A program made the position numbers and the translations under genes. Positions 47 through 35,122 of a DNA stretch of 35,122 bases are shown one piece after another. The notes beneath the pieces were generated by a model. It saw only the letters and a program-made list of their open reading frames with translations, was not told the DNA's origin and ran no database searches. The stretch covers positions 101,663 to 136,784 of the forward strand of contig PS015039.1 in the NCBI GenBank assembly GCA_048213135.1, in the 5' to 3' direction. This stretch comes from Reclinomonas americana ATCC 50394. Taxonomy: Eukaryota. Within the stretch, counting starts at the first letter, position 1, and every line of letters begins with the position of its first letter.

Positions 47-3000
47 GTGGGTCCCGTTTTGGTCAAGATCCGTGAGCGTGTGATCTTGTCGCAACTGGCG
101 TTGAGTGCCATGGGCACGTACGTCCCGGTTCGTGACGACAGCACGCGTACGCACTGCGCTGCGTGTATCGGTGAATCACGCTCATGGCCCGTGCGCACAC
201 AGACTGTTCGCTCTGCTCGCCCGTTGCAGCTGGATGCAGAGTCGCAACACCACTACTCAGCAAAAGAAACCGGTCCCATGGCGGAGCAATACAATAATGC
301 CTTTTGTCAGCTCTTTGTGGAGGATTCACGCTCGGAGGAGGAGCTGGGCTTGCGCCTCCGCTTCTCACTGGCAGACATGGACATGGCCATGGTGAAATGC
401 ATCTTTCACCACGCACTGCTGCAGTACCCAGAGTCGGCGTCCCTGCGCCTGCTGCAAGTGCAATACTTGGACGAAGTCGTGGATCGCCGACAGCAACATG
501 TGTTGGACGCACAGCTGGCATCCGTTGCGTACCACGCGCACACAACACAGGCACTCACAGGTGCAGAACGGCGTCGACTCACCTGCTTCCACAGTTGCTG
601 CGCGATGCACCGCCGACCAATGCCGTCGATTTCCGTTTCTTCATCCTGTCGTACCGACTGCGCAGTCTCGAGGCCGCAGCTGCCGACAATTCGCTGGAGT
701 TTTCCGTTGGCCAGCGACTCAGCCTCGCCAACCAGCTGCATGTACAGCTGTTGCACCTGATGGTCGAGTGCTGGTCTCTCAGCGCGGACGAATCAGGCAC
801 GGCAGACAAGAAGCGACTTGACGATGTGGTCGAGGACATTGGTGAGTTTGTGCACTTGTACGTCGCGCATGCACTCTCCATGACACTTGCCGCCGTCGAC
901 ACAGCTACGAACTCGACGCGTCTGAGCCGCATGTTCCGCTCCCTGCTGCGTGATGCTCCACACTCGTCACTGGTACTGCGGTCGTATTCCAAGTACCTGG
1001 ATGACATTGAACACGAGTTGCGTGTCTGCACACACCATACTACAACTGCAGCGACTGTGGTGTCTGACGCACAGGTGCACGCAGTGTGTACGCCTCACGC
1101 GCAGTGGCGCAGTACGCCGACTACATGGACGAAAACGTCGTCGAAGTAAGACGGCAGCGACGCTCACGCGCTCGGCGTGCAAGTCGGCACGATGCATCTG
1201 TGCTCACTCGCGAGTTACGCAATCCCACGTGATGAGAGCAGACGCCTTGAATGTGGTATTCATCCGCACCGTAATCAGTTGTTCTGGTACGACGCGTGAG
1301 CGGCGGAGCTCGACTCGCACGCTGAACAGCTCGCTGCCGAACTTGCAGTCCACTCCTCAGTCTTCGCCGATCAACCAAGCTGCCGTCGACGCCGACGACA
1401 ACAAGTCGCACCACCACGAGAGCAGCCCCGGTGACACAAAAGTCGCATTGTCACCTTCGGTCGCAGCCAATGGAGATAGTGACGACGACGATTGCACTGT
1501 GCAGCCAGCACGCGTACTTCCACCTGTGCGCACTCGCCGAGGACGGCCGGAGGCCACCCTGTGGGTTCCACCGCTGACTGTGACCACGCCCACTGTTCAG
1601 TCGCCACCACAAGCTGCTGCTTGCATCGAAGGTGTGACTGGTGTCGGCCGTGGTGCTGGCATCAGTGGCGAATGCGACGACGACGACGACGACAAGTGGC
1701 TCGCACAACACTTGCACCGACTGCCCGAGGTCCTTCTGGAGGCAAGCAGGGGTCACAATGTTGACGATAGTGACGATGACGACGAGGACGAAGACGAAGG
1801 TGGAGACGACGACAACCTGACTGCACTGGCCGGCCGCAAACAGAGCCTAGTGCCAGTCGGTGCATCGACACCGCTTCTGGCGGCACCTGGCGGGGTGCTC
1901 AGCCCAATTGCCACCATGGCCACTGCCGATGCCACTATCACTGTCACCACCACCACCACCACCGCCACCACAACCACCACCGCAGCAGCAAGCAGCAGCC
2001 CGCTCCACACCACCCTCATGAAACGGGACAGGGGCAGGAGTCTATTGGTGGACAACGCGGTGATGCGGCGACCAAGCTTTGATCTTGGTCGCATGCAGGG
2101 TGCTCCAGCGCAGAGGTGGACGCAGATTCGAGACAAGATGGCCCTCGGTGGCAGCCAGCCGGCCTCTGTGCAGGAACCGATATCGTTGCAGATGCTCAGT
2201 CGCCGCGAGTCCGGTCGCAGCATTGTCGACACATTTGTGGCCGTCCCTGCACGCTCCTCCTCGCTCAAGAGTATGCCTACTGTGAGCCCCCGCATCAACG
2301 GCCTGCTATTGCAATCACCGTCTGCCGCATTCAATGCCGACGGCGAGAACACCAGTGTGACGAGTGATGATGAATCATCCGACGACGACTCCGACGACGA
2401 CGAGCTGTCGCCGCTTGCCGTTCAAGGGCTTCGCAGAAATATGGGCAGCGGTACTGGTGCCGCCGGTGGTATCGGCAGTGCTGGCGGCCGTGGTGACGGA
2501 GCGCTTGACATTGACACCAGTGCTTCTGTGTCTACTGGGCTCGGTCGTGACTCTGGCGCCAGAGAGCTGTTTGCCGACGCCGACTACGGCGAGGTTCATG
2601 GCAGACACTACCGCCAAGGCAGTCGTGGCAACAGCAACATGTACGGATCCGCAGGCAATGCTGCTCCGTGGTCATTTGCGACACAGCGAGTTGCGTCGGT
2701 TACCACTGCCAGGGACTGTTGACATTGATGACACTCACGTGCACCTTGTGGGGCCGCAGAACCGGCAAGGCGCAACTGCACTGATGCCGGCCGTGCTGGC
2801 TGCGCAGCGCGACCAGATGCAGCAGGTGGATCTGAGGAACCGCCTGCTCTCAAAAGTCAACACTGCTCGCCTGCGTCTGCTGTTGTACACGGTATGTGTG
2901 AGGGTGCTGCGAGTGTCATGTGCACCAACAGACAGACGATCTCATCGCTGTTTGCAGCTCGGTCCTCTGTTGGTCGCTCTGGTAGCGGCTGTCGTGGTCT

Positions 3001-6000
3001 TTGTTGTGGCTTACTCGTCGGTGAACAAGGAGCTGTGCCTTGCCATCGAGATCACAGCCACGCAGGTCAAGATTGTTCCTGCGCACTACGCAAACTTCTT
3101 GTGGATGTACACGTGGAATGCTTATGGTCGTCTTGGTGAGTGGGGCACTCGTGTAATTGGGGTAATGCATTGTCGACACGTCTCACTCTCCGGTAGGCTT
3201 GTACTCCAACCTTGTCGGCAGTGTGGCCACTCTGGCCAGTGGGGCGATTGATACCGCATCGACTGTAGTGAAATCGTTTGGGGTCTACGTGGCCGCGTCT
3301 GGCGATCGAGTTGCGCACTTCGCTCTTGATGCTACCGCCACTGATGTTTTGCAACTGAAAAAAATTGTGTGCAGTTGTTCAGCATGATACAATCGTGGCG
3401 ACAGTACATGTACTCGCCTGATACGGCTCGAATCATCCTTGACATTCCAGTCGTCGTTACACACGCTGCAGGAAGCGTGCGTGACCACGCGTCAGTCACG
3501 ACGTCGAGCACCTTGTATTCATTTCTCGCCGAGCTGTCCGTGGTGTACAGCAACATGCTCTTGGTTCGCTGTCGCACTCATTCCTGTCTCTTGGTTTTGT
3601 TGATTTCTCATTTTGTCGGGTATTAGTGCCTGGTGCAAGGAGCACCAGTGGAACCGACAACGTGCGCCACGGCATTCCGCTTCTCAATGGACAACATGGA
3701 CGAGGTGACGCACGCTGTGCTGAATGCAACAATGTCGACGCGAACGGTATTACTACGACTGTCACCATCGCTGAGTGCTCATTACCCTGTGCTTACATTG
3801 TTTTGACGGCTGTTTTTTGTAGGATGTCTTGAGCGCAGCTCATTCGAGACTGATGACAATCGGAATTCTTGCCGCTTGTCTGCTGGTTCTGTTTGGTGTT
3901 CTGCTGGTGTTCGTAACGCTGCCGGTATACCGCAAAGTACTTCAAGAGAGGGAAATGTTGCGCGCAAGTGCTGTTTTGCGATTGATCTTCCCGACTTGTG
4001 CTCAATATATTGACAATGATAACGCAGCATCATGGACCTGTTCTCGGAGATCCCCGGCGCAGTGTTGCGACGCGTGTGTCGTCGGATTCGCAACAAGCTA
4101 ACTTCATTCGCTTCCGCGGGCCAGCTCGACCCCAACTTTAACGAAAGTGTGTTTACGGAGGGTCAGTGCGGTTCTGCCATCACATGGGTAGCACACTCGC
4201 TGTCGACATGTCTGCTAATGATCCGAGGGTGCACAGGATGTTGCGGAACTCGGTCGAGTTTGCGGAGTCAACTGCGGTGGGCTGTACTGATCACAGTTGT
4301 TTTGCTTGCTGCCTGCTTCGTTGGGTGGCTGCTTTTGGTGTACTCCTACAATGCTCACGAACGGATGCTGAGTGGTGACGCTCTGGCAACTGCGGTATGT
4401 GAATTGTGTCTTGTTCGTACTGCAATGACGACCACTGAAGCGGATCATCTGCTTGCATAGCATATCGATTTGCTGACATCGATGCTGGCAAACGATATTA
4501 TCCGACTTGCGTACGATACGAAAGCGGCGGAAGCTGATGTGCGGTGTGTGGCACTGTTTCTGACATTTGCAATACTCGTTTCTGCTTGAAGGGCTCAAAC
4601 ACTCGCAATATGTGCACACAGGGAAGACACTGCGGCCACTCTATCCTTAGCGCGGGCGGCGTGGGATCGCGTGATGTTTGGCAACGGCGAGCCATCGTCG
4701 AGCCTCCTGCACCGCAGTCCAGGATACGAGAGGGTCTGTGTATCTTCGCTCAGTTTGGCATGTTTTCTGCGCATTTTGCTGACTGTGCTAATGCATTCTT
4801 CAGTTATTCGTGGGCGAGTGCTGGCTGCCCACCCTGTCGCCTTGCACACCACTGCCTAACTTGGACACCACACTCCACACCGTCTTCTCACTGGCATCGT
4901 CGCTGATCCAGCGGAGTTCGATCCGTGGCACGGACCTCCTTGCTGTGCCGGAGTGGAATCCCTTAAGTTTGTGATTTTTCTCCCCTAACACACTGCATAA
5001 TCTGCCACCTTTACTCACGCACGTGTTTACGTGCATTTTCAGTTAACGCTATCATGCTCGAGCAACAGCAAACGGAGATGATGCTCGCCGAGACCATGGT
5101 GGTGCGTTTTCTGTTCGCAAGTGGTGCCAGTTTCAGAATACACGCACTCACTGTTCGCACGCAGCTGTACCAAAACACCACGACATGGCACATGACCCTC
5201 AGCATCGTTGCTTTGTGTGCGGCACTCTGCTTGCTTTTTCTTCTCTTCTGGTTTGTGTGGCGTCCCCTCATTGCCGAGCTCAGTGACATGGTGAGTGTTT
5301 GCTTGGGATGGTGCTCTTCCGTTGCGCTGGAGTTGACAGCTTCTCTCTCTCTCTCGCCAGATGCGCTACACGACAAATCTGTTGCTGCAACTGCCTCTGG
5401 CCGTCATCGACTCGGTACCACGAATTCACGCATATGTGGCTGACGACGCGCACACTCTGCGCAAAGACCTGGCCAAAGCCGTGGTAGAAAAGCATCAGAA
5501 GATGCTAACAGTTCTCAGCACTGCTGCCGACGGTTTCATGGAGTTTGACGAGCACGGCTGTGTTCGACAGCTCAACAAGGCAGCCGAAGTGCTGCTTGGA
5601 CTGCCTGCGACGCGCTTGCTGGGCGATGGGGTGCGAGAGAGTGCTACTACAAATGTTCCTCAGCAGCCCTGACTGACGTGCTTGCATGTTGTCTGACAAC
5701 CAGATGAAGCAAGTGTTCGACGAGCGCAGCCTGAACGAAATTCGTCTGGAGGTCCAGGAATTCCTCAAGAGTCGTGCGCCTTCTCGAGCATTCAAGCGGC
5801 AGGTTCGCGTGTTCGCAGTTGAGCTTACTGGGCGACACTTGCCTCACAGCCGATTTCAGATGACATGCATCCACTGGGACTCGTTTGTTTCGGATGCTGA
5901 TGCGTCTGTCTTGGATGCGGACACTCTCGCGGAGAGAGAGCTGTGGAATGACGATATTGACACGCAGCCGCACGTACAGTACACGAAGCCAAGATTCAGC

Positions 6001-7410
6001 ATGTTTCCTGTGTGGGTGAGTTGTATCTAGTCTCTACGCACAGGAAGTCAATCCACTGTGTATATGTGACGCTCACTGTGTTGCGCGACGTGGCAGATCT
6101 CGTTCCACTTCGGGTACATTGGTTCCACGCCAGTATTTACGTGTTTCTTCCACGACCGCACGAACGAACTCAAGCGGGAGCAGCAGCTGGAAGAGGAGAA
6201 GCTCAAGTCGCACGAACTGCTGCTGAACATTCTTCCGAGCCGAGTGGCAGTTCAGTTGCAAGTGCACGGCAATGATCGACCCATTGCCGAAATCCACGAG
6301 TATGCTTCAGTGCTGTTGCGTCTCCACTTGTTGCTGTCATGCTCGACTCTTGCGCCTTTGCGAAAAACTCATCGCGCCCTGTTCCGATAGGTTCCTTGAC
6401 ATTGTTGGTTGGTGTTCGCGTAATGTCGCACGAGCCGCGTATCGCTGTTGAGTTTCTCAACGCCGCTCCTTTCGCAGGTTTCACCGAGCTGTCCTCCAAC
6501 ATCTCATCCATTGAGCTTGTGGAACTGCTCGACACGCTGTTCTCCATGTTTGACGAAATCGCCGACGAACAAGAAGTCATCAAGGTCAAAACGATTGGCG
6601 ACTGTTATATGGCGTGCAGCGGTTTGCAGGCTGGTGACATTGGCAGCGCTGCCGAAGCGGCCAGGAACCTAGTAGAGGCCGCCATTGGGTTCATCACCAT
6701 TGCGTATGAAAATTTCATCTCGGTGAGAGCAAGAGACTAACCGCTGCCACAAGCCACAATGTACTCACAGTTTTTTTCACGTTGGGACGCAGGTTCGCGT
6801 GGGAATCCACACCGGGCCGGTCACAGCCGGTGTGATTGGTCGAAAACGCTTCCAATGGGACTTGTGGGGCGGTGAGTCACACTAATCGTCGCAGACGAAA
6901 GGTTTCCATGTTGTACTCACCTCGTTCCATGCACCAGACACTGTGTACATGGCGTCGAGCATGGAAAGCACCAGTGAGCCGATGCAGCTGCAAGTCAGTT
7001 CCGCCACCTACGAACTCGTTTGCTCCGACTATGCCTTCGAGGAGCGGCAGGTGCAAATCAAAGAGACGGACACGCAGACTGCTTACCTACTTACGGGTCG
7101 CATCGACAACGGAGTCGTCGTGAGTCTCTATGAGACTCCAGAGAAACAGCAGCAGCCGCAGCCGCCACCGCCACCACCATCTGTGCGCGGTCGTGCAGCA
7201 TCGCCGATCAGCATGTCGGGCTTCGGATCGCCGCAGTCTTTTGTTGCCACACCGTTGCACCAGAGCTCCCCACATCAATCGCAGCAGCAGCAGCAGCAGC
7301 AACAACAACAACAGCCACAGCAAATACCAGTTCCGCAGCCATCTCAACGCAACCTCTTGAGTGTGAGAGCACTAGAGGTATTCGCAAGTGACACCAATCA
7401 CCCGTGGTGA
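47..7410 (+). CDS. Multi-exon TmcB/TmcC-like membrane protein with PAS domain and C-terminal class III (adenylyl-type) cyclase domain; 5' end lies upstream of the window
   Basis: Spliced exons give TmcB-like helical repeats (AVDFRFFIL..., [29 protein letters not shown]), a low-complexity linker (1279-2689) and several hydrophobic TM segments (about 2960-3020, 3860-3920, 4280-4345, 5195-5260). Then PAS ([29 protein letters not shown]...FTCFFHDRT), coiled coil [18 protein letters not shown], and cyclase motifs [53 protein letters not shown]. Stop TGA at 7408-7410. Confidence 0.88.
6391..6407 (+). other. 17-nt microexon of the cyclase gene encoding (L)FLDIV(G), including the first metal-binding Asp
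   Basis: Flanked by ...CGATAG (6390) and GTTGGT (6408). Inclusion joins YASVL to GFTELSS in frame and restores the canonical motif. Confidence 0.85.
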
Positions 7411-7495
7411 TGTAACCATAATTAAAAAAACGTAGTACAACATTAGCAACTGCATCGACATCATCGGCATGCATTTTCCCTTGTCTGCTCGGCTG

Positions 7496-9395
7496 CTACA
7501 ACTGGAGCTGCCCCGATGGCTGGTTGGCCGCGTCGGAGAGATCGAGAGTAACGTGGTGACATCTGTGGAATCGTGAGCATGCGAGTGAGAAGAGCACGTG
7601 TTGCACGCACGCAGAAAAGATGAGCGGGTCTCCCACCTTCCGTACGTGTCCACCACGCCATACACCGGTCGTGTTACCACCACTCGTTCGTTGGCTATAG
7701 GCGCCAACAGTTGGCCGTTCACCACTGGCCTCACCACGTTGTCCGCGTACAGCCGGAGGCCCACCAGCGACCCTATCGCCCGTTCTTCAGAATCGCTGTA
7801 CGTGACGACACCGGGAACACCTGCGAGGTGCGTGTAGGCAGGAGTGAGGAGCGTGGCGACTTATAGACGAGCACACGCAAACGTCGTACCACTGCATGTG
7901 GACGGCACTTCAAACGTTTCTGGCGGTGCGTTGGTGAATCCGATTGACAGAGCACCACTCCAACCGCGTTGCATGTGGAGCACTCGCACCGTGAATTCGA
8001 CGTGAACCACATTCCCGCTCTCATCAGCCTCGCACAGCTCCTACGCATTTGACAAACACATGCAGTGGTGGTGTAAGCGATTGATTCTGCGGTCCCACGA
8101 TTTTTTCATGCCAGCTGCAGCACAATAACACAACTGGGAGCGGTTCCGCAATCATGGCCACCGAGTTCATGAACGGAGACGGTGACGCCTCCAGGCGACG
8201 GAGGTGAAGATTCTCTCCGGAGAGTCGTGCATTGGTTCCCTTCTTGGCGGGGTCGAAGAACAGCTGCGCCTTTAGCCGGTTGATAACTGTCACCGGCAGA
8301 AGAAAATGGTCAGCACAACTTGCAGCAGCACCTCGCAGTCGACGGCGCCACGAAACTCTTCATCGCATTCTCCACCGAGGGCGCCAGATCGGGGAACTCC
8401 TTCACGAGAGCAGTCATGTGGTCCTCGATGCCGAGATCACGCAGCGCGCGTGCATTGCGCTGCGTTTCTGTGTGGTTGCTGCGACGTCAGTGCACGACAC
8501 ACGAAGAGGGAGAGAAAAGCCCACCACACGCAGCTGCTGACAGCATTGTGCACGGCGCACACTGCCTCTCGTGCAATGTCCACTTGATGACACTGCAACA
8601 TGTCGAGCAGCGTGGCAAACACCGTGTCCACATCCGACAACCACGCTCGAACGTCGTCATCTGCTGAAGGTGAGTCTCCATCCAGGGGCGGACGCAAGAC
8701 AGCAGCCAAGACACACGTACCGTGCGTCAGGTTGCGAAGAATGGCGGCCGCGTGCACCCGCACCGCCACATCCGCCGACTCGCGCAGCACACGCAGTGTC
8801 ACCTCCAGCCCTCCGGCCTCCACAAAGTCGCCGACAGCCACGTGACACGCGGCAATCGCATTACGCACGGCTCCCATCAGCGGCGACAACAGCACAGAGG
8901 CACGAGGGGACGACGAGGAGCAGCAGGTCTCCAGAAGCCGCACCACGGCACTCGGACCATTCATCATGGCAAATGCGCATTTCGCTGGCTTGTTCTCTGC
9001 ACACACACACGCACATGATCAGCTGGGCCACCACCAAGCAGCAACCGGGGCACATGTACGCGCATACCATACAGTGTCACCCACAGTGCAACAGCAGCAG
9101 CCACACGTGGATCATCATCGTCACCACCACCACCACCTCTGACACTATCACTGCACAACACACTCAGCAGCACTCGCAGCAGATCATCCACATGCGCGGA
9201 TTCGCCTGCCAGCCTCAGCCGATCCTCCATGGCACCTGCGCACATACGCACATGCACACACAGTGAGTGTGAGAGTGAGTGCCGGAAAAAACTCCTTCGT
9301 CTCTCCCTCTCATAACTTGTGAGCATGGCCTGTGTGAATCGCTGCAGCGACTGTGCGCTGCGGTCCACCACTGCCTTTACGCACTCTTCCAACAT
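7496..9395 (-). CDS. ARM/HEAT-repeat protein with a C-terminal Neuralized homology repeat (NHR) domain; 8 exons
   Basis: ARM-like segments (FVEAGGLEVTLRVLRES...HAAAILRNL; IAREAVCAVHNAV). Spliced C-terminus LFFDPAKKGTNARLSGENLHLRR...FMNSVAMIAEPLP|...FTVRVLHMQRGWSGALSIGFTNAPP...VVNGQLL...PVYGVVDTYGR|CHHVTL matches the NHR pattern. Stop TAG at 7496-7498. The start ATG at 9395 is tentative. Confidence 0.75.
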
Positions 9396-9454
9396 GGCAC
9401 AGACAGACAGGGACAGGAGGAGCACGCAGGACACTAGTGTATTCCACTTTTGTC
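9396..9454. promoter_or_regulatory. Putative very short bidirectional intergenic region between the ARM-NHR gene and Gemin5
   Basis: Only 59 nt separate the divergent ATGs at 9395 (-) and 9455 (+). Confidence 0.4.
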
Positions 9455-11240
9455 ATGCGGCGTCTGCACGCACAGCGATGCCTGCTGCCTTCGCCCAACT
9501 GGTACACCTTTGCAGGCGCCGACTACGTCGCGTTTGCCGATGATGAGCACGTGGAAGGCGTGTGCACAACAACTTGCTTTTTTTCTGGATGTTTCCTCAC
9601 TCACACTTTTGCTTCGTTGTGCAGTGTACTGTGCGGATGACTTGTCTGGTGGTGGTGGTGGTGGTGGCGAAGGAGGAGAAGGGGGAGGTGCAGTGTCGGA
9701 GGATCCAGTGACGGGCTTGTTTGCATTTGCCAGTCGCAACACGGTGTTTGTGTTGCCTGTGTGTCAGCGAATGAGTGATGGCGCTCGTCGGGTGTGTTGC
9801 ACTCTCGCTCTGTATGTGTTTGCTAAAGTGGGCGTGCGATTCCCTCGGTGCTGATCATGCATGAATTGCATTTTCTTGTTGTAGGGCACTGCTGAAGGAC
9901 GTGCGCCGCGTGTGCAGCACTACTTTGGGCCACTGTGGCGGGAACTCGAGGGCCACAGCAATCGAGTCAACAGCGTGGCTTTGTTTCGCGATGCAGAGGT
10001 CGGGGCGCGTCGCATTGTTGGTGACTTGTGTGCCTCATCTCATCTCGTTCTTGTGTGTGCGTGTGTGCTGCAGGGCGTGATCCGGTGCATTACGGCGTCG
10101 GCCGACAAGAGTTTGCGGTGCTTCGATGTGGAGTCGTCGCACTGCGAGCGTGTGCTGCAGTCGTCGAGCAAGTCTGAGTTTCAGGCCATGTCTCGCTCGC
10201 CGGTGACGCCGCAGGTGGTGGTGGCCGGATGCAAGAATGGTGCGTTGACGGTGTGGAACTGTCTCACCGGCGACGGGCACACCTTGAATCCGGATCCCAG
10301 CGGATCGATCTGTTCGGTGGCCTGCTCACCTGTGCATGAAACCATTGTGGCCGTCGGCTACACCAGTGGCACCGTGCTGATTGTCGACACGCGGACTGGC
10401 GCCGTGCCGCACAAGTTGTTCAACCACAAAGATGAGGTGCAGGGCTTGTGTTGGCGACCGCGTGGCAGCGGGCCTCCGGCGGCCATGTCCGACGACATGA
10501 TGTTGGTGTCGGGCAGCCGCGAAAAGTCGATTCACGTGTACCGCTTGTCCACCCGTTCCCGGCGACCGGATCGGGCCTCGAGTGGAGGTACGAGTCGGCT
10601 TGTGTTCTTGTTCTCCAGGCGCGCGCGCTCACATGTGCTGTCGATTGCGAATCAGGGTCGTGGAGGAATCCGCCGGCCGCGACCACTGAAGTTGCGTCGA
10701 CTTTGCCGCAAGTGCATCACATTCAGCTTCGCGAACCCCATCTCATGCGCACTCCTTGTTTCTCTTGCTCGCATGCATAGATCCTGACGGCGGAGGAGTG
10801 GTGCGCGGCCAGCTCTGTCGACGACGTGCAGCACAGCATTGTGCCCAAGTCGTTGCAGAAAGGCACGCGCACAATCAATAGCTCCGCGTGTATGTGTGTG
10901 CGTGTGTGTGCGTGTGCTCACGGACGACGTCGCTGCAGGCAAAGCACTCACGGAGGCGCAAAAGTCGCGGCTGTGGATCACAGTGCAGTGGGTCCCCGAC
11001 ACGAACTCGTTTGTCAGCTCGGGTCTCATGTTGCGTCCCCTTGTGGTGTTTTTCGGACTTTTCCGGTGGATCTCACCGCACGGTGTTCCCTCCCACAGGG
11101 GTGACGTGTACCTGTGGGACGTTGGGCGTCGCAGACCGGTGCCGTACTCGAGTCCGCACTCGCGTTGTGTGTTTCACTTGGCGGCAGATGCGCGATGGAA
11201 CAAGCTGCTTACTGTGTCCATGGATCGAACGGTGTGCATT

Positions 11241-11315
<75 letters not shown>

Positions 11316-11565
11316 TACGTCGCGTAGTCGTTCTTCGTCGTCGTACGGTACCGGACCGAAGGGCGGTAGTTACGGTTACGGTACGAGCGAGACGAGGGAC
11401 GAGGAGGACGCACGCGACGGACTACGTAGTGTTACTTCCTTACGTTNNNNNNNNNNNNNNNNNNNNGGTCCGGACGACGTAGTCGGCGGACGTACGGTAC
11501 GAACGACGTACGTCGTACTTCGTTGTCGTACGTACGTAGTACGTACGGTACGGTGTCGTACGTCG

Positions 11566-11640
<75 letters not shown>

Positions 11641-24100: not shown

Positions 24101-24386
24101 AGAAGCGCGGCAGGTTATCCACGAGTGCATCCACCGAGCGAGTCATGCCAGACAACTTTATGAACGAAAGAATAAGAAGGCTGTGGGGGACGAGGTGACT
24201 GCGGAGGAGAGCACCTGTGTCTGCATGGTCTCACAGACGCGTGAGTTGGCCACAAAGTCGCCACGGTGAGTCACCGCCAGCTCATCCATCTCCTCCTGCA
24301 ATCGCTTGCGTTCATTCTCCAGTCGCACAGGCTCGAGTTCCAAGTCGGCCAGACTGATAAGCGTGTGTGAGAGTGAGTGAGAGCAT

Positions 24387-24432
<46 letters not shown>

Positions 24433-24770
24433 GTGTGCACCTCAGCGAGGCAATCGTCGCGCGTAGAGTTCATATTGCTGGTCACAGGGAGTGTGAGTGC
24501 GTGTGCGTGTGTNNNNNNNNNNNNNNNNNNNNATATGAGAGAGCACAGTGGACGCAACAATGTCGTACTCTGTATGTGTGTGTGTGTGTGGCAGAGTGTG
24601 AGAGTGAGAGACAAGAGTGTGCGCGCAACAGAGTCACCTTTTGTGTATGGATCACGCTGTGAGTGGTGCACGGCATGTGAGTGAACAGTGTGGCTATTTG
24701 CAGCAGCTCACACACACAGACGCACCTGTAAGGAGGTGAGAGGCAGAAGCAGCTCGGCAATGTCGTCCAT
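21117..24770 (-). CDS. COG8: Conserved oligomeric Golgi complex subunit 8 (Dor1 family); three exons lie on an inverted contig (21504-22050)
   Basis: Spliced translation includes SLADLELEPVRLENERKRL, LTELLEVPQLMDTCVRNQLY, LCGPLELPTCLK|LVNQLRK, LIFLKCR, LLEQCVYCATALARIGTDF and HSLAVCANGFLEALNDLR, all typical of COG8. Start ATG at 24770 (MDDIAELLL). Stop at 21117, or about 21072 if a last intron is spliced. Confidence 0.88.
22735..22950. repeat. Two diverged direct repeats of about 77 bp inside an unusually long purine-rich COG8 intron
   Basis: 22735-22811 and 22873-22950 share ...AGATGCTGAGGAATATGAAGA...TGCAGCACTGATGCAGGAAGAGA. Confidence 0.85.
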
Positions 24771-24839
24771 GTGAGTGAGAAGAAAAACGATTTTGAGATG
24801 TCCTGCTCAGTGTTGGCGATGGTTTGCAGGGTGTAAGAG

Positions 24840-25731
24840 ATGGCCACTGTGCAGGTGGTGAAGACTACGAACGTGCGTTGCGCCAAGGCGCGCACAGGAG
24901 AGAAGCAACGAACGTCGAGAACAATGTCGACGTCGGCTGGTCGCACTCTCAGAGCGCCTGCAAAGTCGAGCGTGCATGCTCACTACAGGCAACATGCTTA
25001 TGTAGACTAGCGGATCAGAACCGCAGCAGCTGTTATGTCTCGCACGCGACGTCGGGAAACGTCGCGCGCAGTGGCGTGTTCCTCGCTCGCTCGCTCTCTG
25101 CGTTACACGTACTCAAGCAGAGGTACAGGTACACGTCCCACTCTGCGCACAAGCGACGCACCTTGCAAACAACGACGGACATCACAACAACACGACAGGA
25201 CAACCATGGAATCGATGCGAGGTGATCGCACCCTCCCTCTCTCAAACTACTCTCCTCCTCTGCTCACGTGTATGTGCCAGGACGTATGGTGCGCATGCGC
25301 ATTGCCTATCAAGAAGGCGTGGCAGAGACCGCGCGATTCATTGACTCTGTTACGTGACACACGCTGACTGAGAGCCGCGCCGAGTGTCTCACATACGCGC
25401 GCGCACACACAGATGCCGCACTTTGACGCACAAGCAGAGGTAATAGATGAACACATGCAGCCTTTGTGCGTTTGTGCGACTCACTCGTGCGCGCGCAGGA
25501 GCTGGAGGAGTTTTTGCGTCACAGCCCGGCCACACCTGTCAAGTTCATCGGGTCGCCCAAGTTGCGCAACACACACACACACACTGTGACAGAGACAGAG
25601 ACACACACGGGCACTCAATTCTCTCTCTCTCTCCGCACAGGCGACTTCACCAGCAGCAGCCTTCGACACCTGCCGGACACGATCTCAATGCCTCGTTTGA
25701 CTCGTCGCCCATGCAGCAGAGACCCGCGTGA
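24840..25731 (+). CDS. Small multi-exon hypothetical protein
   Basis: Phase-consistent GT-AG chain: ...TTMESMR|GRMVRMRIAYQEGVAETARFIDS|MPHFDAQAE|ELEEFLRHSPATPVKFIGSPK|RLHQQQ...QQRPA*. The first exons are uncertain and I recognise no family. Confidence 0.55.
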
Positions 25732-25828
25732 CGACATGCGAGGCAAAATGTATTAACTTTCTCTCTCTCTGTTCAACAACACTACACACAAAATCAAGCA
25801 GTCGACTTGCGCGCGCACGGGGGTGCGC

Positions 25829-26346
25829 TTACTGCCGCGGAGGCAGGTACATGGGATCGGAGCACTTTTGAGACTCCTCAATGATGAGCCCGACGCACTC
25901 GGTCCACTGTCAAGGGAGTGAGACGACACGAGGCGAGGAAAGAGACAGCGTGCATGCACAAGAACGCAACGTTCATGTTGGCATCGACGCAGACCTCGAC
26001 CGAGTCGAGCATCAGCTGATCGTTGAACTTGGTGCAGCTCAGTGCCGGCGCGTAGCCCGTCTTGGCCTTGAGCGCGCTGATTACAGCGTCCACAGACACC
26101 GCTACACGTACGTACAATGAGAGGATGCACAAGAGGCCGCAAGACAACAACAACAACAAACGCAACGAGTGTCGTTACTGGCCACAATGCCCGCATCCTG
26201 CAGCGCCTGCTCCGCATTGAGGCTCTCACGCAGCCGCAGCGTGCCCTGGAAGAACGTCTGCTCGCTGGTGATGCTCGGCGCCTGTCCATTCATCGCACAC
26301 GTGCCGTGCTTCTCTGTGATCACACACAAAGATACAAATAGGTGAG

Positions 26347-26380
<34 letters not shown>

Positions 26381-27393
26381 CAGAGGCTCGGAAACACGGC
26401 AACAATCAGTTCNNNNNNNNNNNNNNNNNNNNNNNNNNNNNNNNNNNNNNNNNNNNNNNNNNNNNNNNNNNNNNNNNNNNNNNNNNNNNNNNNNNNNNNN
26501 NNNNNNNNNNNNNNNNNNNNNNNNNNNNNNNNNNNNNNNNNNNNNNNNNNNNNNNNNNNNNNNNNNNNNNNNNNNNNNNNNNNNNNNNNNNNNNNNNNNN
26601 NNNNNNNNNNNNNNNNNNNNNNNNNNNNNNNNNNNNNNNNNNNNTGCACAGAACAAGTCATGAGCTTCCTCTCACAGAACTGCATGGCATTTAACAGTTA
26701 CGTCACCAGCAGTGCCAGTGTTCTGCAGGTTGGACCACTCGGCCAGCAGCTGGTTGTAAATGCCGGCAATCTATGCAGCAGAGAGATGCAAAGATTCTCA
26801 GCCAACCCTGTGAACGACCCCCCAGAGGCACAAAGAAGAGGTTAACCTCCGAGTAGTTGAACGGGTAGTCCTTGTTGCAGAAGGACGGGCTGTGTGTGCA
26901 CGCGCAAGTGTCAGAGAGTGTGTGTGACAGAGTGCGAGAGAGGGGAGTTGCGCGCAACTATGACCCATCATTGCGGTTCGGCCACAGACCTAGCACGCAC
27001 ACACACAGTGAGCAACACACAGAGCACAACGCACGCGCGAGCAAGTATGTATACCATGCAAGTTGAATGTTCTGCGCGAGGTGCATGAGCCACTGATGCA
27101 CTTGTGCACAAAAAAAAGCATCTCTTTCACATACTCACGTCGAGTTGCTCGGCAGCTGATAGTTGGCAGCGAGGCACACAGTCGGCGCATACCGGTCCAC
27201 CAGGATCATATAATCCCACGACGACTGAGAGAGAGTCAGTCGGAGGAACTTTGTGTGTGCGTGAGTGAGTGTGAGAGAACGCAACATCGTCGCGCACGCC
27301 CCACTTTTGGGCGGTTCCGCGCAGCCGCACACCAGTGGCTCCCAGCGCCAACACGCTCACCACAAGCAGAGCAGCAACAAAGGCAACGCGCAT
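25829..27393 (-). CDS. Secreted/lysosomal ribonuclease T2 family protein; one exon probably lost in gap 26413-26644
   Basis: Signal peptide MRVAFVAALLVVSVLALG, WDYMILV, CAS-I TFNLH|GLWPNRNDGSYPSFC, CAS-II KHGTC, and C-terminal PALSC...LDSVEVCVD. Stop TAA at 25829-25831. Confidence 0.9.
27055..27071 (-). other. 17-nt microexon of RNase T2 encoding TFNLH(G), including the CAS-I catalytic His
   Basis: CGCGCAG acceptor and GTATAC donor. Inclusion joins NST to GLWPN in frame. Confidence 0.75.
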
Positions 27394-27490
27394 GAGCAAA
27401 GAAAAGCGTGTGTTTGAGGACTATTGAGGACAGTGGCTCGCTGGCGCGAAAAACACGCGCTATCTTTGTGTGTGGTGTGTGTGAGCTCTC
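27394..27490. promoter_or_regulatory. Putative bidirectional promoter between RNase T2 and the BEACH gene
   Basis: 97 nt between the divergent ATGs; contains TGGCGCGAAAAA. Confidence 0.45.
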
Positions 27491-30400
27491 ATGAGTCGTC
27501 GCAACACTGCGTCGTCGAGCAGTGGCGGTGCTGCTGCGCCCGGCTCCTCTGTTGCAGCAGAGTTGCGTGACAGAGAGGAAGAGAGAGTGAGATGGCGCGC
27601 AATGACGCACTCTTTTGCTTTCTCTCTGGTCTCATGTGTGCGTGTGCGTGCGTGTGTTTCCCTCTCCCTCTCTGTGCGCCCGTCTTGCTTTGTTGTTGCT
27701 GCTTGCTTTCGCGGCGAGGTCGTGTGGAATTGAGCCTGATGCACTTGTCACAGGAATGAGTACAGATTACGTGAGCTGTGGGCGGAGACCAGTCGGCTGC
27801 CTGCCAACAGCAAAGTCGCGTTCCATGCGCTCTCTCACTCTCTGTCTTTCTCTCTCTCGCTCACCACCCAGTGGTCACGCAGGATCGTGCCAAGAAGTTG
27901 CTGGAGATTCTCGACTTGTTCCCCAGTGTGTGTCGCTCGTGTAGCGATCGCACGTTTCTGTACATGTTGCGTCCTCTCATGCCTGTCTGTGTGTGACGTA
28001 CACACAGACTCATCTCGCGCGCGTAGCTTTGGAGACGGAGTGCAATTCGCCACCACATGCGCCACACGATTCACGCGCGAGGTGGAGAGTCGAATCGGGT
28101 CGCATGCCGAGTCGCCGCAATCGCAGCTGGCCATGGTCAGCTGGTTGTTGGGCTCCGATGGCGTCGGCAGCCTGCTGCTGTCCACGATGGTGGTGCTGTC
28201 GCGTGATATGCGTCTGTTGAAGGAGTTGGTCGACAATCACGTGCCGTCGGTGCTCGTCACCTTGCTGCGCACGATGCTGGTGTTGCCCGGTGACTTGGTC
28301 GCCGCGTGTGCCTCTAGTCGATTCCCCGGTGCGTCCCGTCCACTCCTCCCCTCTCTGAGTGGTGCAGATGGGCATGCTCACACGCACGCACACAGATCCG
28401 AGCACGCAGGTGGCACTCATTGTGCAGGAGACGGAAACCATCCTCACACAGTCGCTCTCGGTGCCGTCGATTTTCCAAGACCTCTCGCGACACGACAGCA
28501 TCTCGGGCCTGTGGCAAGTGTTTCTGTCGTCAGAGAAGAAGTCATCGACCCACTCGGCTGGTGCCGCGTCGCGCGTGTTGGTCGCCGTCGGGCGCAGTCG
28601 TATGATGCAACCGAATGTGGTCGATGCGATTCGCCGCAAGGTTCTCCGCGCCTTGTTATTGTTGTTGTTGCTACGGCACCTGGCTGTGACTCACGCGCCG
28701 CGGTGATGCGCAGTCGTTTGTGGAGGTGTTCTTGACTCGTGTCGACCAAGCGCGTGCCAACTGGGAGAACGCCTTGTATGCGCTGCAGGCCCTGATTGGC
28801 GTCGTCAGGGTGCGTTCCCTCATTCATGTATGTGGAGGCTTGTGTGTGCATGAGTGCGTCCTGACTACGTTCGTCTGCCGGCAGGGCACGATTCGCATCA
28901 ATTCATCGCTGCTCAACGAGTTCCTCAACAAGGACGGTTTCAATGTGGTGAAGCGTCTCATTTTGCGACTGGAGAATGACTTGCAGCTGGACGATCCGGA
29001 GAGCGATGGTTTCCGCATCATGGTGAGGCGGGCGAGCATTCGCCACTCTTTGCGCAGGCCGCTCACGAGTGTTGGTGTGGCTCGTGCGCACAGAATTCGT
29101 TCTTGGACCAGGCGGTGGAGTTGTCGTTTTTTGGCGAAAGTGAACTCGATCCGAGTATGACGGTCGATAGCACGGCATTCATCTCGGCTGGTGGAGGTAG
29201 TGTGCATTTTGTGAAGCGGTTGTGCCGCTGCAACTTTGTGTGACACTTGTGTCTCGTGTGTGTGTGCCAGAACGCATTCGGAGTCTGGAGGGCTTCCAGA
29301 CACTGTGCAGCCTGTTCATGGAGTCGAAAAAGATGGAGACACAGACGCTGATTCTGGAAAAGATGATTCACCTGTTCGCCTCGAACGGCTGGAACTACTT
29401 TATCGTGCATCATCTGCACGTGCTGACGCTGATTATCCGTGACTTGAACCGGTTCCACGATCAAGTGCAGGTCTGCATGTTTTTTCGTAGTGCAAGTGTG
29501 GCGTGACTGTTTGAGTGCATGCTGACGCTCTCGCGGGTGGCGCAGATGTCGGTGATCAAGATTGTCGAGTACATTGTCACGGGTCTCAATTTCGTACCCG
29601 AGGAGGAACTCAGCACCATGCTGCTCCTCTTTATGGGTGCGTGCCCGTCTGTTTTGTGATGTCCGCATTTCCCTTGTCGTCGTTGCTCATCACACGCGTG
29701 CGTGCACGTAGTCCCCATTTCGTCGACTCTGAGTGCACGCGTCTTCAACACCTTCCTCAAGCTGCTCAACTTTGACGATCAATTCCGCTTTGTGCTACGC
29801 GATGCCGGTCTCATTGAGGTGACGCTGACACTGCTGCGTGGCTACGACGACCAGCAGCAGCGACCAACTGCCGACATGAGCGAGCGGCCAGTGGCACACG
29901 CCTCAGTGGTGCGTGTTCCCTCCCTGTTCACGTCCGGGTGGTGGTGGTGGCTATTGAGAATGGCTGATTCGTACCTTGCGTGCAGGTGCCACTGATGCTC
30001 GACATGCTGGCGACCATGATTGAGTTTGCGCCCGACATTGGCAAGGCCTTCCGTGAAGTCGGAGGCGTGACCGTGGTGTCGGGATTGCTCAAGTACCCGC
30101 AGGTGTGTTCCGCCATTGAGTTACGCCGAAGCCACCTTTTTGCACTGCAATGACGCACACGTTCTCTACAGTTCCGACCAAACTGTCTGCGCGTCTTGTC
30201 CAAGCTCATGGCCGACAATGAGCAGCTGGAGCAAACGGACATTGTGCAGCTCATTGAGCAGTTGCAGATGAACCAGGATCTGACACTGAAGCGTGACGTG
30301 TTTTTGGGGGTGCGAAAGATGATTGTCGCCAACCCGAACATCAAGGACGCGTTCAGGGAACACGGTTCGTGTGTCTCTTGCGAGAGAGGAGACAGTATGT

Positions 30401-33400
30401 GCGACAGTTGGTTGACCGCCGAACACAGAGGGCTTTGCGGCCGCGCTGACCAGCATCATGAGCCTCTCCAGTGTGGTCTCACAAGCCATTGCCAACAGCG
30501 ATGACGTGGTGCTGGACCAGGCGGTGGAGATGTTTGCGTCATTGGCGCGGTGCCTCGGAGCTGCACTGTCGGGTCACATGCGCAATCAGATGTACCTGGA
30601 GACGAGTTGCGTGGTTTCGCTGACGGCTCTAATTGCTCCACCTGCTCAATTTTCCGTTTTATCTGCGCAAGGCGAATCGGCCTTTGCCGATGCCGTGTCG
30701 TGCACGTGCCTCTTCAGCACATCGCGTCGTGATCACGCCATCCAGGCGCTCCTCGACATGGTCCTCGATCAAGACGTATCGACGGCGTTTGCCACGGTCG
30801 CCGGCTTCAAGCTTGCCGACGATCATGAAGGTGCGTTTCTGGTGCAGGAAAAAGGAGAACTTGTGCCGGTATCGTCACTGATCCGTGCCTATTCCTTTGC
30901 TCTGCAGTGCGCAACGAGGGCACTCTGCGACTCTTCCTGAAGATCATGCAAGAGCAAGACGAGGCGATGAAGCATCGCCTTGTGCAGGTGTTTTTGCTGC
31001 TGGCCAACAACCGCTGGAACTTGCACATGTTTGCTCGTGTGGGCATGGTCGACTTCCTCGTGTTTGTCTTTGCCGAGGCACTCAAGGTGGCGGAGAGCGA
31101 CGTGGCGCGCGACGTGCTGCGTCTCATTCAGCTGATCGGCTCGCACTCGTTCTCGATTTCTGGCTTCAAGAAGTACCTGGCGCTGATGAAGGACGACGCT
31201 CACTCGATCGAGCTGCTGCGCACACTCGTCAGCATTGGCGACGACAATGACGGCACCTCGTTTGTCAATGTTGCGCGCGCGCACCACCTGTTTTTCCAAA
31301 TCGTGGACGATGCGTGTGCTGACTTGACGAATTATCTATTTACTAGCTGGAGCCAAAGGACTGGCTTCTGATTCCCGATCTCGGCAGCCGAGTGTGGCCA
31401 CCCAAGAATGGCTACACGTACACGTGTTGGGTGTCGTACTCGCACCGCTTCAATCAATCCGTAACCGAGTTTCGTGAGACCCTCAGTGAGTGCTGACGAC
31501 CTGGTTACTCACTCGCTTGTGCGCGCAGCGGCGACCGCTCGGCAACGAGCCCTGTGGCCACCACGGTGCAGGATCCGTTCCAGAATGTGGTGCTGTTGAG
31601 GCTCTTCTCCAACGACGGGCGTTCGTATCTCGAGGTCTTTCTGTCTGTGTGCGTGCGTGTTGTCAAATATGTTTCTTTGCCTCTGATTGTCGTCGTCGTG
31701 CAGGTGGCGCTCTCGCCCAGTGGCCACATCGACATTATGACAAACGTGCGACAGGAGGCTCACCGCTTCCCGGGGTTGTCGCTGGAGGAGAACACGTGGC
31801 ACCACGTGGCGTTGACGCACGCATACAACCGCATTCAGAGCTCGGTGGTCACGCTGTATCTGGACGGGCAGTTTGTGGCCACTGGCAAGGTCACGTACCC
31901 GGCGTCCTCCAATTCCGCTCTCTCGGCGTACATTGGTGAGCGCTGTCGCTGTAGGGGGTTTTGCCACTCTTCCTCTGCTTGGTCTCACCGCGACGCTCCA
32001 CAGCTCTGCGCAAGTCCGTCGGGCGTGCTCACATGGATGTCTCGTGCAAGTTCGGCCCGTGTCTGCTGCTGGAAGACTGCCTGTCGGGCGCCAATGTTGC
32101 CTCGGTGTACGCGGCTGGACCACGGTACGTCGGCTACCTGCAAGGCCGACTGGAGGAGACACCGAGTGCCGTCGACCCGATTCTCACACCGGGCATGCTG
32201 GAGCTCGCACAACACATGGAGCTCGGTAGTGAGCAGTCGCACTTTGCCACTTCGTTCCACCAGATGATGGCGGTAGCGAGGCCGTTGGTGCCGCCGGAGA
32301 AGATCATCTTTGCCTTCAACAGCCGCTACGTGGGTACTCGGCAGGATGAGCGCGCTGCTGGCTCTTCACGGTTTGATTCGCCTACTACCTCACGTTTACT
32401 CTGTTTGGTTCGCTGATTCTCTTTTTTTGAGTCAGTGAGGGCCTCCAGTCGTTCTTGATGAACATGGCATCGGCTCAGCCGCCCCAGCTCCAAGCTTTGC
32501 TGGAGGGCCGTGCACACATCTGCTCCGCTGTGTCGTTGTCCATGTTGGTGCGCACCGCGCACGGCCTGATTGCGTCGCTGTACTTTGTCGATCGAGCCAA
32601 GGTGAGATCGTGTTGCGGTGCGATCTGTGTGCGCCCCTTTTGTTGACCTGCCTAACACAATGATGGGGTGCAGACGCGTGAGGCATTGGATCTGGCTCTC
32701 GGCTTCTTGTGCAACCTGCTCGACTCGTCGTACAGCAACGCCGACGAGTTTGCCCGCATGCACGGCTACGAGATTCTCGGCAACCTGTTGCGCAAGCAGA
32801 GTTACCTGTTCACCGAGAACACGTTGACCAAGATTTTCCGCTTGGTCCTCGGCGTCACTGAACGGCGGCGTGAGGTGCGGGGAAAATGAGAGACGCCGCT
32901 GTTCATGTTTCTGGCCGCTGAATTTGCAGGTCTGTGTCTGCGCAGATTGTCGGCAACATGTACGCCGTGCGCTACCTGCTGCTGGACAGCTCCCTGTGGA
33001 AGTTGACGAGTCCCGAATTCCAGTGCCATCTGTACGATCGTGTGCTAGCCATGGTGCTGCGAAGCCCGTTTGGCACCATCAATGCTGTGCGCTTGCGTCG
33101 ACAGCGTTGCGTTCTACCACCCATTTTGTTGTTGCTGTTGTGGTTGTGTTTTCGTTTTTTGTGCTGACTGATGCGCGTTATGCATCGTGTAGGCATTGTG
33201 GAGCACGTGCTGAGCGTGCTCAGTTCGGGAGTCACGATTGAGCTCGCACAGCATGCCATTGCCGTGTTGCAGGCCGTACTGAGTCGCAATTTGGCCAACG
33301 ACGACGTGGAGGTTTGGAGTGTCACCGCTATTCTCCCTCATCATTATCTCAAGTGCACTCATCCTTTCTCGCCATCTCCTATCTGGTAGGCGGTGTGGAA

Positions 33401-35122
33401 TTTCTTGTTGACCACCGTGTCGAGCTCGGCCGCCGGCAACGAGGATGTGGTGGCCAGAGGTGAGTTGGAGCATTATCATTCGTCGACACACGTTGTCACT
33501 CACATGTATGCACTGGACACTGCAGTTGTATCGTCCACCAGTGTGCGGAGGCGTCCGTCCATGGCCGTCCGCTCTCGTTGCGTGTGGCACCATAGTTTAA
33601 TGTCCTTCTGGTGTTCGCGGCGCTGACGCACACACGCGCGCTCCCCGTGTCTACAGATTTTGTGCAGACACACACTGACATTATCCGCAATCTGGTGCTC
33701 CAAATGCTGCTCAACTTGGTCCACGGTCCGGAGCGTGATCGCATCTTACCGGCCCTCGCGCATGTTGCGTTTGTACATTCTCCGCTGGTTTTTAACAAAA
33801 ATGCTGATAGTGGTGGTGGGGCGTGCGACAGACGGCGGAACCGTCGTGGTTCTTCTTGCTGATCGACAAGCGGCTGCACCCGGTGTCCGTGTCGCTGACG
33901 TTCCGCATTCTCACGGAGCTCATGATCCACCAACCTTCGTACCTTACCTCGTTCCGCAACGTGTTTGGGTGCGTCCGCTGTGCAGTGTAGTGATGTAGAG
34001 TGCTGGAGTTCGTGACTGAATTGGTTGAGATGGGCGGCAGCTTTGACATTCTGGCCGACGCCCTGGAGACGTTTGCCAACCAGGACGAAATTTACCACAC
34101 GCTCTTTTGCTTGGCGCTGGGTCATGACACTCGAAAGACGGCCGATCATCGGCAGCTGACCTTGGAGGACCTGGTGGAGGACTTTGATGTTGCGTGCACG
34201 CGCATGCATGCATGCCTTTTCGTGTGGATGCACAGATGACGCTGACGCGTTTGCTTTGTTTTGGACAGGGTCAGCACAACCGTGTGTATTGCCGCGAGGC
34301 ACTCAGCACCCTTCTGCAAGTTCTGCGCAGCCACTGCACCACGGACCACCACAGTTTCTTGTGGCCGCCGATCAACACGCGCAGATACTTTGAGGACGTG
34401 GACGCGGCCGCCAGAAAGGTGCGAGACAACAGAATTACGCTTGTGTTTTGCCGTTCCTCACTTGCGGTGCAGGAGGCCAAGAAAATGGTGGTCCCGCGGC
34501 CAGTTAGCCGACGCTGGGCACTGCTCCGAAATGTGGTCGCGGCGGTGTTTGCCTTGCGCTCTCTGCTGTTGCGTCGGTGGAGCTTGTGTTCTCCGATGAG
34601 ATGTGACGCTCATTGTGGTGTTTGCGGCACAGAACCAAACGCGCGGACTTGGGCATGCTGTCGCCCGGCTCGCCGCCGTCCTCCATCTTCGCCACCACTC
34701 TGTTCGGCTCGTCCCTCGCACAGCGTCCGAGTGAGCTTTCACCATCTCCGGCTCCCGATGACGATGTGTTTGGGTGGGCGCCGGAGGGAGGCGATCCGCA
34801 GCCCCCGCTCCGAACCGGAGCTGTCAACGAGGCGACATTGCGCTCACTCCGCTACGGCTCCCTCAACACCACGCTCGTGCAATTCGTTCTCTGGCTCTTC
34901 CGGCACAGTGAGGAGGTGAAGACGGCGTGCAGAAAACCTGCATTCCTCGAGTTGGTGGTGGAGGTGAGTGCGGCGCGCAGTCATGGCGTTGGATGTGAAC
35001 AAAATACTGACCTGGTGGCAGCTCCTCTTTGCGCGCAACAATGTGGTCGCTCGGCCTCACGAGTTATCTCGTCGTTCGTCGGTGGCTCGCTCGGTGTGTA
35101 TGCAAATTGGGTTCTTGCACGT
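27491..35122 (+). CDS. N-terminal part of a large BEACH-domain protein (WDFY3/Alfy/LvsA-like); ARM-like solenoid plus ConA/LamG-like domain; continues beyond the window
   Basis: FNTFLKLLNFDDQFRFVLRDAGLIEV, KDAFREHG, then ConA-like motifs WPPKNGYTYTCWV, WHHVALTH, TLYLDGQ, YAAGPRYVG and PEKIIF, and EFARMHGYEILGNLL. The BEACH domain itself is not in the window. Confidence 0.8.

Follow-up and report, generated by a model that had tools for sequence, protein, structure and literature searches.

How is a 5' splice site recognised when the usual G at intron position +5 is missing? The question is raised by a 35,122-nucleotide (nt) stretch of DNA from Reclinomonas americana ATCC 50394 (contig PS015039.1, positions 101,663 to 136,784), referred to here as the window. 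The first-pass annotation of the window had proposed that donors of the form GTTGCG, preceded by a base other than G, form a frequent second class of 5' splice site, and that each is a +1-shifted copy of the normal donor. Analysis of the window indicated that GTTGCG(T) and its relatives are, with high confidence, real donors and a separate class, and on the gene models the two together start about one intron in four. The explanation that appears to account best for the data as a whole, and to which we incline without being certain of it, is that these are genuine U2-type donors paired in a shifted register with a U1 small nuclear RNA (snRNA) that carries a G within its pairing block.

The genes were read by eye and the stop-free frames were verified with scripts, with acceptors placed 47–105 nt downstream of the donors and a few further away. 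Three donor-blind dynamic-programming gene finders over-chained or chose arbitrarily among in-phase GTs, and hand models combined with expectation maximisation (EM) were used in their place. The census obtained contained 110 introns in eight genes (24, 8, 23, 5, 9, 4, 7 and 30 introns each). Removal of all 110 gave stop-free open reading frames (ORFs) of 80–1824 amino acids, as expected of GT-AG introns. The most frequent donor hexamers were GTTGCG (22 introns), GTGCGT (13), GTGAGT (10), GTGTGT (6) and GTATGT (5), followed by a long tail; GTGCGT, the commonest of the ordinary donors, was found alongside a CTGAC/CTCAC branch-like motif. A T at position +3 was present in 44 introns. The earlier estimate of about 30 such donors among roughly 100 introns was borne out, as GTTNNG without G at +5 was found in 30 of the 110 frame-checked introns, all of which have T at +3 and G at +6 by the definition of the class. 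These 30 comprise the 22 GTTGCG donors and eight relatives (GTTGTG, GTTTCG, GTTATG, GTTACG and GTTGAG), including a minus-strand GTTGAG (position 23808) that had not been listed before. One donor was moved from 10888 to 10890, the sole choice with an open frame. Frame-consistent donors lacking G at both positions +5 and +6 were also observed (GTTAAC, GTATAC, GTAACA, GTTCTC, GTTACC and GTAATA), and donor recognition therefore appears loose outside the two main classes.

All 24 coordinates listed for the hexamer carry it, 19 of them on the plus strand and five on the minus strand. The related donors were assigned to strands as well, those at 25349 and 31469 on the plus strand and those at 8134, 8356, 9316, 23126 and 23270 as minus-strand donors, because the plus strand has no GT at these positions. 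The listed donors within the eight modelled genes were compatible with open frames, as had been stated, although a frame does not by itself fix a donor; the donors at 27562 and 24558 lie upstream of ORFs and would belong to putative introns of 5' untranslated regions (5'-UTRs).

The hexamer itself was weakly enriched, with 54 copies on both strands compared to 39.2±6.5 in dinucleotide shuffles, 3 of 100 of which reached 54. Extension by a single base gave a far sharper signal. The 7-mer GTTGCGT occurred 20 times compared to 10.4±3.2, a number reached by none of 100 shuffles; relative to the gene in which each copy lies, 19 were sense and one was antisense (p=4e-5). This places it among the most strand-asymmetric non-microsatellite 7-mers of the window, beside the acceptor word TGTGCAG (24 vs 2). 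Use as a donor depended on the base at +7, being assigned to 19 of 20 copies of GTTGCGT, 5 of 17 copies of GTTGCGC and none of 17 copies of GTTGCG[A/G]. All 19 sense copies of GTTGCGT were located at intron starts, each with a branch-like motif and a frame-restoring AG 58–105 nt downstream (192 nt in the 5'-UTR case).

A single degenerate donor motif did not account for these counts, since independent positions predict 1.1 GTTGCG donors among the 110 introns and 22 were seen. The same separation was obtained by EM, in which all in-phase GTs around each intron were supplied as candidates (mean 3.4 per intron) with no other prior, the candidate phases being taken from the hand models so that the procedure partly depends on them. 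A one-class model converged on nnG|GTGcGT. Two classes increased the log-likelihood from 100 to 215, and a third class added 28. The second class of the two-class model was caa|GTTGCGTgc with a weight of 0.29, and the donor chosen by this model was the hand-model donor in 97 of 110 introns.

The main concern with such a class is whether its junctions are correctly placed. Two of them are set to the residue by protein homology. In the cyclase gene, the spliced model across the intron at 6315–6390 (+) aligned without gaps to P0001, a bacterial-looking cyclase and the one match in a protein search with a cyclase exon, through the segment ...SVLF.DIVGFTELSS..., scoring 160 bits compared to 150–154 for three in-phase alternatives. 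In the RNase T2 gene, residues 1–47 of the exon upstream of the intron at 26102–26166 (donor 26166, minus strand) matched positions 94–138 of PF00445 and residues 2–41 of the next exon matched positions 142–181, so that the three residues between positions 138 and 142 are exactly accounted for. The intron at 26890–26958 (donor 26958, minus strand) is required because an in-frame TAG spans the donor; the spliced product contains HGLWPNRNDGSYPSFC, which we take to be the RNase T2 active-site motif. At 3957 there is no alternative in-phase GT. Three further donors with T at +3, outside the GTTNNG class, were likewise supported by homology: GTTGGT at 6408 by the alignment to P0001, GTTTGC at 23640 by Dor1 coordinates that run 150–178 and then 180–218, and GTTACC at 13125, which rebuilds ...TVQ|IWD, presumably the canonical end of a WD40 repeat.

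The opposite reading is that the true donors are nearby GTs and that GTTGCGT is another kind of strand-specific motif near exon ends. Several observations weigh against the junctions as modelled, and some of them are what such an artefact would lead one to expect. Every junction rests on sequence-derived gene models, and apart from the two fixed by homology the donors were chosen by eye with frame checks. Residue-level support is restricted to 2 of the 22 GTTGCG junctions, the remaining 20 not being resolved, and single-exon Pfam matches at 31270, 33106, 33764 and 11030 did not resolve those junctions. Another in-phase GT is present in 21 of the 22 introns, and in 9 of them an alternative carries G at +5. 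The one-class EM selected GTTGCG in none of the 110 introns, and the two-class EM disagreed with the hand models in 13. A by-eye choice was also found to be wrong in one case, where DUF4704 coordinates showed that seven residues were missing and the donor was moved from 32854 to 32875. The site at 1017 had been called ambiguous and is so, having two in-frame acceptors; 13368, with an in-frame GTGCGT 9 nt downstream, and 27285, with an in-frame GTGCGC 12 nt upstream, are ambiguous too. An artefact is nevertheless very unlikely given the junctions at 6315 and 26166, the absence of another in-phase GT at 3957, the limited number of alternatives with G at +5, the consistent position of the sense 7-mer ahead of a branch-like motif and a frame-restoring AG, and the far better fit of two classes than of one.

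Apart from the donor, the GTTGCG introns resembled the other introns of the window. Their lengths were 58–105 nt, where the median of the others is 70 nt, their base composition was similar and all three phases were represented. Within the final 45 nt, the introns of both donor classes have CTCAC and CTGAC as their most frequent 5-mers. The base at position -3 of the acceptor was C or T in 20 of 22 GTTGCG introns and in 82 of 86 others; acceptors that appear to be AAG rather than YAG were observed in the neurobeachin-like gene, in the GTTGCGT intron at 30606–30671 (+), and in the COG8 gene at 24214–24156 (-). Since their length, branch motif and YAG end are those of the other introns and they have no common interior, they are classed as ordinary U2-type GT-AG introns with a different 5' signal, and neither as U12-type introns nor as introners. 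The U12 type was rejected on two grounds, as the donor is GTTGCGT and not RTATCCTT, and the branch region has the CTSAC of ordinary introns and not TCCTTAAC. U12-type introns are similar in forming a second sharply defined donor class beside a major one, but in addition to donor and branch they differ in frequency, representing 0.36% of human introns in the portion of PMC4856993 available to us compared to about 27% here. A recurrent 7-mer heading many short introns of similar length could also be produced by mobile introner copies whose 5' ends are still common. This is contradicted within the window, where intron interiors were equally alike within and between classes (mean longest common substring 6.25 within the GTTGCG class vs 6.14 and 6.11) and an exon-end/intron-end match of the target-site-duplication type was found in none of the 22 introns, so that introners are scarcely credible as the source.

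The relation between the two classes became apparent at the last base of the exon. G was present at -1 in 58 of 66 donors with a base other than T at +3 and in none of the 30 GTTNNG donors (p=2e-14), in agreement with the non-G at -1 noted previously. The other donors with T at +3, most of which have G at +5, had G at -1 in 12 of 14 cases. At +7 the GTTGCG donors have T (17 of 22) or C (5 of 22), and ordinary donors with G at +5 have T at +6 in 40 of 56. When the two classes are aligned with an offset of one base, G+1 falls on the ordinary G-1, T+3 on T+2, G+6 on G+5 and T+7 on T+6, and the cores of the GTTNNG class are the ordinary cores minus one T. N|GTTGCGT can be read this way as an ordinary G|GTGCGT changed at its +1 position and cut one base earlier, at the only available GT. 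The proposal of a shifted copy was thus supported with respect to the one-base shift and the absent G-1, but the class is not a plain copy. GCG and GAG cores numbered 22 and 1 in the shifted class compared to 16 and 15 in ordinary donors (p=6e-4), and xCG cores accounted for 26 of 30 donors in the shifted class compared to 21 of 56 ordinary donors with G at +5 (p=1e-5).

These features bear on how U1 might pair with the class. A register with a bulge at +2/+3 was considered and is disfavoured; it keeps the G+1:C8 pair, so G-1:C9 should remain favoured, and the observed frequencies of G-1 were 0/30 in the class against 58/66. The complete absence of G-1 therefore fits a shifted register better than the bulge, and a shifted U1 register is somewhat more probable than not. 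In the proposed mechanism U1 snRNA would pair with donors of the class one base out of register, G+1 lying opposite C9 of U1 in the place ordinarily taken by G-1, U+3 opposite A7, and G+6 and U+7 opposite C4 and A3. Cleavage would stay in front of the only GU. The shifted register would lose the G+1:C8 pair and so would work only with a core that pairs well, and the near-exclusive use of xCG cores would imply a G in U1 opposite the C, with a 5' end like ACGUAC or ACGCAC and not ACUUAC.

Duplex energies were calculated for the textbook U1 5' end, taken as AUACUUACCUG (ACUUAC core) and also given as ACUUACCUG. With this end the 22 GTTGCG donors gave a mean of -0.4 kcal/mol in any register, compared to -5.7 for GUGCGU and -9.8 for GUGAGU. 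A mechanism like that of the human sites cited in the first-pass annotation is thus not supported if U1 is unchanged, the GUUGCGU duplex being at about -0.4 kcal/mol; pairing near zero together with the xCG bias makes an unchanged U1 unlikely. With hypothetical U1 ends the best GUUGCGU duplex was a continuous shifted helix, at -4.8 kcal/mol for ACGUAC and -6.8 kcal/mol for ACGCAC, and GUUGAGU remained weak. A G in U1 opposite the C would explain why the shifted register is found almost only with xCG cores. From these sequence statistics and a simple energy model, a U1 5' end other than the textbook one is suggested, with belief and doubt close to balance and doubt slightly the heavier.

An alternative that retains the normal register is a dedicated second U1 variant, or another snRNA, with a 5' end complementary to GUUGCGU (…ACGCAAC…), the standard U1 serving G|GUNNG. 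This is the main rival. Seven nearly invariant bases (GTTGCGT in 17 and GTTGCGC in 5 of 22) suggest a long Watson-Crick pairing of the Entamoeba kind, the class would pair at -10.2 kcal/mol with a hypothetical ACGCAAC end, and in Physarum candidates for a standard and for a modified U1 occur together according to the accessible part of a preprint (bioRxiv 10.1101/2022.06.08.495308). A second U1 with the usual CCUG after its pairing block should, however, still favour G-1, contrary to what is seen unless C9 also differs. The eight rarer relatives, which share the non-G at -1 and mirror the ordinary cores minus one T, are also better explained by a shift, and a dedicated second U1 is on balance unlikely.

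Recognition might also be achieved mainly by means other than U1 pairing, in which case the class would be an extreme of a strong intron side with a weak exon side, read by U6 and U5 or by a protein with a preference for UUGCGU (U1C, LUC7 or similar). The near-zero pairing of GUUGCGU with the textbook U1 is in keeping with this, and so is the anticorrelation seen here between G-1 and intron-side strength. In the sections of PMC10581693 available, plants and animals are described as having two major classes of U2-type 5' splice site with opposed strengths of U5 (exon AG) and U6 (intron GURAG) interactions. The present donors are similar in combining a weak exon side with a strong intron side, and the reverse, but the described classes share one register and grade into each other, differing by degree, whereas here G-1 is totally absent and the conserved G stands at +6 in place of +5. 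By hand pairing, the ACAGA box of U6 would likewise have to pair one base out of register. Recognition of this kind is improbable, and more so than a second U1.

Some further points count against a shifted register with a G-bearing U1. The shifted register predicts only that G-1 is dispensable, with about 21% G expected from the ordinary -2 position, and G-1 was wholly absent, which neither this model nor a second U1 explains; register competition as the cause is a guess. Since GAG and GCG cores are equally frequent in ordinary donors, a G-bearing U1 is not obviously favoured by them, and nearest-neighbour energies omit U1C, U1-70K and pseudouridines. A search of the window with Rfam gave no snRNA, including U1 and U6, at the gathering threshold or at E<=1.

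For atypical 5' splice sites in humans, U1 pairing in a +1-shifted or a bulged register was reportedly described by Roca and Krainer in 2009 and by Roca and colleagues in 2012. In the accessible text of Tan et al. (2016; PMC4856993) the human shifted register is a rare one that operates at sites of the GUNAAGU type; of the 201,541 sites, 1.5% have a validated noncanonical register, and 54–68 have the +2/+3 bulge. The likeness to the present class is close, as both have a GU, one extra base and the usual +2 to +6 block, with G+1 replacing G-1 opposite C9 and the cut made at the GU, and the exon base at -1 is not G in the model oligonucleotide shown in the same text. The two differ in scale, the 1.5% for human noncanonical registers in that text standing against 30 of 110 introns here, and in the core, since the human AAG core pairs with the standard U1 and the GCG core does not.

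Changes of the whole donor consensus are described in the available portion of bioRxiv 10.1101/2022.06.08.495308, where Entamoeba has GUUUGUU donors in 88–90% of introns with a U1 of AACAAAC, and Mastigamoeba has GUGCGC donors, a U1 of ACGUAC and 3.4 introns per gene. These lineages resemble the window in U+3, in a preference that extends to +7, in a lineage-specific donor and in a changed U1 5' end, the last being predicted here. The Mastigamoeba U1, as given there, has a G opposite C at +4, which is the feature proposed for the present U1. Entamoeba differs in having a single motif in an intron-poor genome, whereas two classes coexist here in intron-dense DNA with the second offset by one base; the GUGCGC donor reported in the accessible Mastigamoeba text was used by 0 of the 110 introns. 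In mechanism the human shifted register comes closest, and the nearest evolutionary precedents are Entamoeba and Mastigamoeba. The earlier remark that no such case is known holds in part, as the literature covered, mostly open-access articles without supplements, did not describe a GTTGCG, GUUGCG or GTTGCGT donor motif, nor any genome dense in introns where between a fifth and a quarter of the donors belong to an out-of-register class that has a 7-base consensus of its own. It does not extend to donor change across a whole lineage accompanied by a changed U1 5' end, for which the two amoebae provide precedents in the part of the preprint at hand.

The window has the character of nuclear eukaryotic DNA, with a G+C content of about 57% over its 35 kb, five N gaps, and tightly packed genes that are split by very short introns. 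Genes were identified from Pfam matches on single exons, and the class introns described below have frame-checked models except where another basis is given. The (GT)n/(CA)n repeats of the window are strongly biased towards the sense strand of genes (GTGTGT 146 sense vs 51).

The multi-exon class III cyclase gene (PF00211, on the plus strand) contains GTTGCGT introns at 524–594 (phase 0), 1017–1104 (with the acceptor at 1074 or 1104) and 2690–2759 (where read-through meets a stop at +30), in addition to that at 6315–6390 in the catalytic domain, and GTTGCGC introns at 3310–3374 and 3957–4027. A 17-nt micro-exon at 6391–6407 (+) is needed to rebuild the conserved motif ...FLDIVG, and a second at 27055–27071 (-) is needed for ...TFNLHG of RNase T2.

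The Arm-repeat gene at 7499–9395 (-) matched PF00514 and ends in a Neuralized homology domain at the C-terminus (PF07177, E=9e-7). Its class introns are GTTATGA at 9236–9316 (donor 9316), GTTTCGT at 8287–8356 (donor 8356) and GTTGTGT at 8041–8134 (donor 8134), all on the minus strand. Protein searches with an exon of this gene and with an RNase T2 exon gave no matches.

The Gemin5 orthologue (PF23774, E=6e-23, and PF23770) has GTTGCGT introns on the plus strand at 10691–10780, 11030–11098 and 13368–13427, the last being the ambiguous one. The frames of its first intron, at 9558–9624 (+) and 67 nt long, fit only a GC donor (...GAAG|GCGTGT), the GTs at 9560 and 9562 not matching the acceptor at 9624 in phase, and this is likely to be a GC-AG intron. 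Another intron of the gene, at 11232–11687 (+), is unusually long and contains two long (GT)n runs around an ACGT-rich repeat together with a 20-N gap.

The COG8 gene (PF04124), on the minus strand, has class introns of the types GTTGAGT at 23731–23808 (donor 23808), GTTGTGT at 23204–23270 (donor 23270) and GTTACGG at 23064–23126 (donor 23126, acceptor uncertain). Upstream lies the putative 5'-UTR intron of GTTGCGT type read from the sequence at 24478–24558 (donor 24558), which has a 20-N gap inside it. In the region 24354–24480 a CA-repeat intron separates the ATG at 24473 (-) from the next coding exon, and the two are not in the same phase, so the true start or the assembly could be in doubt there; a further GTTGCGC, at 24629 (-), may also be a 5'-UTR donor.

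Two further genes were modelled, one of low complexity and one with an 80-amino-acid ORF; the latter has a GTTACGT intron at 25349–25412 (+) and a GTTGCGC intron at 25561–25640 (+). The RNase T2 gene (PF00445), on the minus strand, has GTTGCGT introns at 27225–27285 (donor 27285) and 25907–25970 (donor 25970) as well as that with the donor at 26166, and the GTTGCGC intron with the donor at 26958. Within 26314–26701 (-) an intron beginning at 26701 with GTAACT runs into a 232-N gap at 26413–26644; the exon expected before ...KHGTC is absent, and this gap probably conceals one exon or more.

The RNase T2 gene, starting at 27393 (-), and the neurobeachin-like gene (+) diverge from a common region of about 150 bp, 27393–27560, which is likely to be a bidirectional promoter of the two. 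The neurobeachin-type protein has PF20425, Laminin_G_3 and DUF4704 in that order along the gene. Its putative 5'-UTR intron, a GTTGCGT intron read from the sequence at 27562–27753 (+) upstream of the ORF, is followed on the same strand by GTTGCGT introns at 27966–28026, 30606–30671, 33106–33192, 33577–33656, 33764–33831, 34189–34268 and 34568–34632, a GTTGCGC intron at 31270–31346 flanked by exons matching PF20425 (upstream) and Laminin_G_3 (downstream), and a GTTTCGT intron at 31469–31528. Metagenome scans with one neurobeachin exon and one Gemin5 exon found no relative, and a PDB search with two neurobeachin exons gave nothing usable.

Few steps of gene expression in eukaryotes are as conserved as the reading of the 5' splice site, and the known departures from it are either rare, as for the shifted and bulged human sites (about 1.5% of sites), or replace the whole consensus, as in Entamoeba. 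If the present explanation is true, two registers coexist in this organism at about 3:1 under a clean rule, either G-1 with G+5, or non-G-1 with U+3 and G+6. Since the one-class EM failed to select GTTGCG, single position-weight donor models would misplace the introns of this class, and a two-class donor model is therefore needed for annotation of the genome. The class would also provide a natural system in which to study the choice of cleavage site by U1, U6 and U5 when U1 is offset, the co-evolution of snRNA 5' ends and donors in intron-rich genomes, and the exclusion of G-1. It is possible, although we advance this only tentatively, that the window reflects a dual-register code, in which one U1 with a G opposite +4 would serve two kinds of donor, G|GUNNG in roughly three introns out of four and N|GUUNCG, read in the shifted register, in roughly one out of four, with G-1 selected against in the latter to keep the registers from competing. 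If so, shifted U1 pairing would here, for the first time in any genome, be a major and rule-governed mode of 5' splice-site recognition and not a rare exception.

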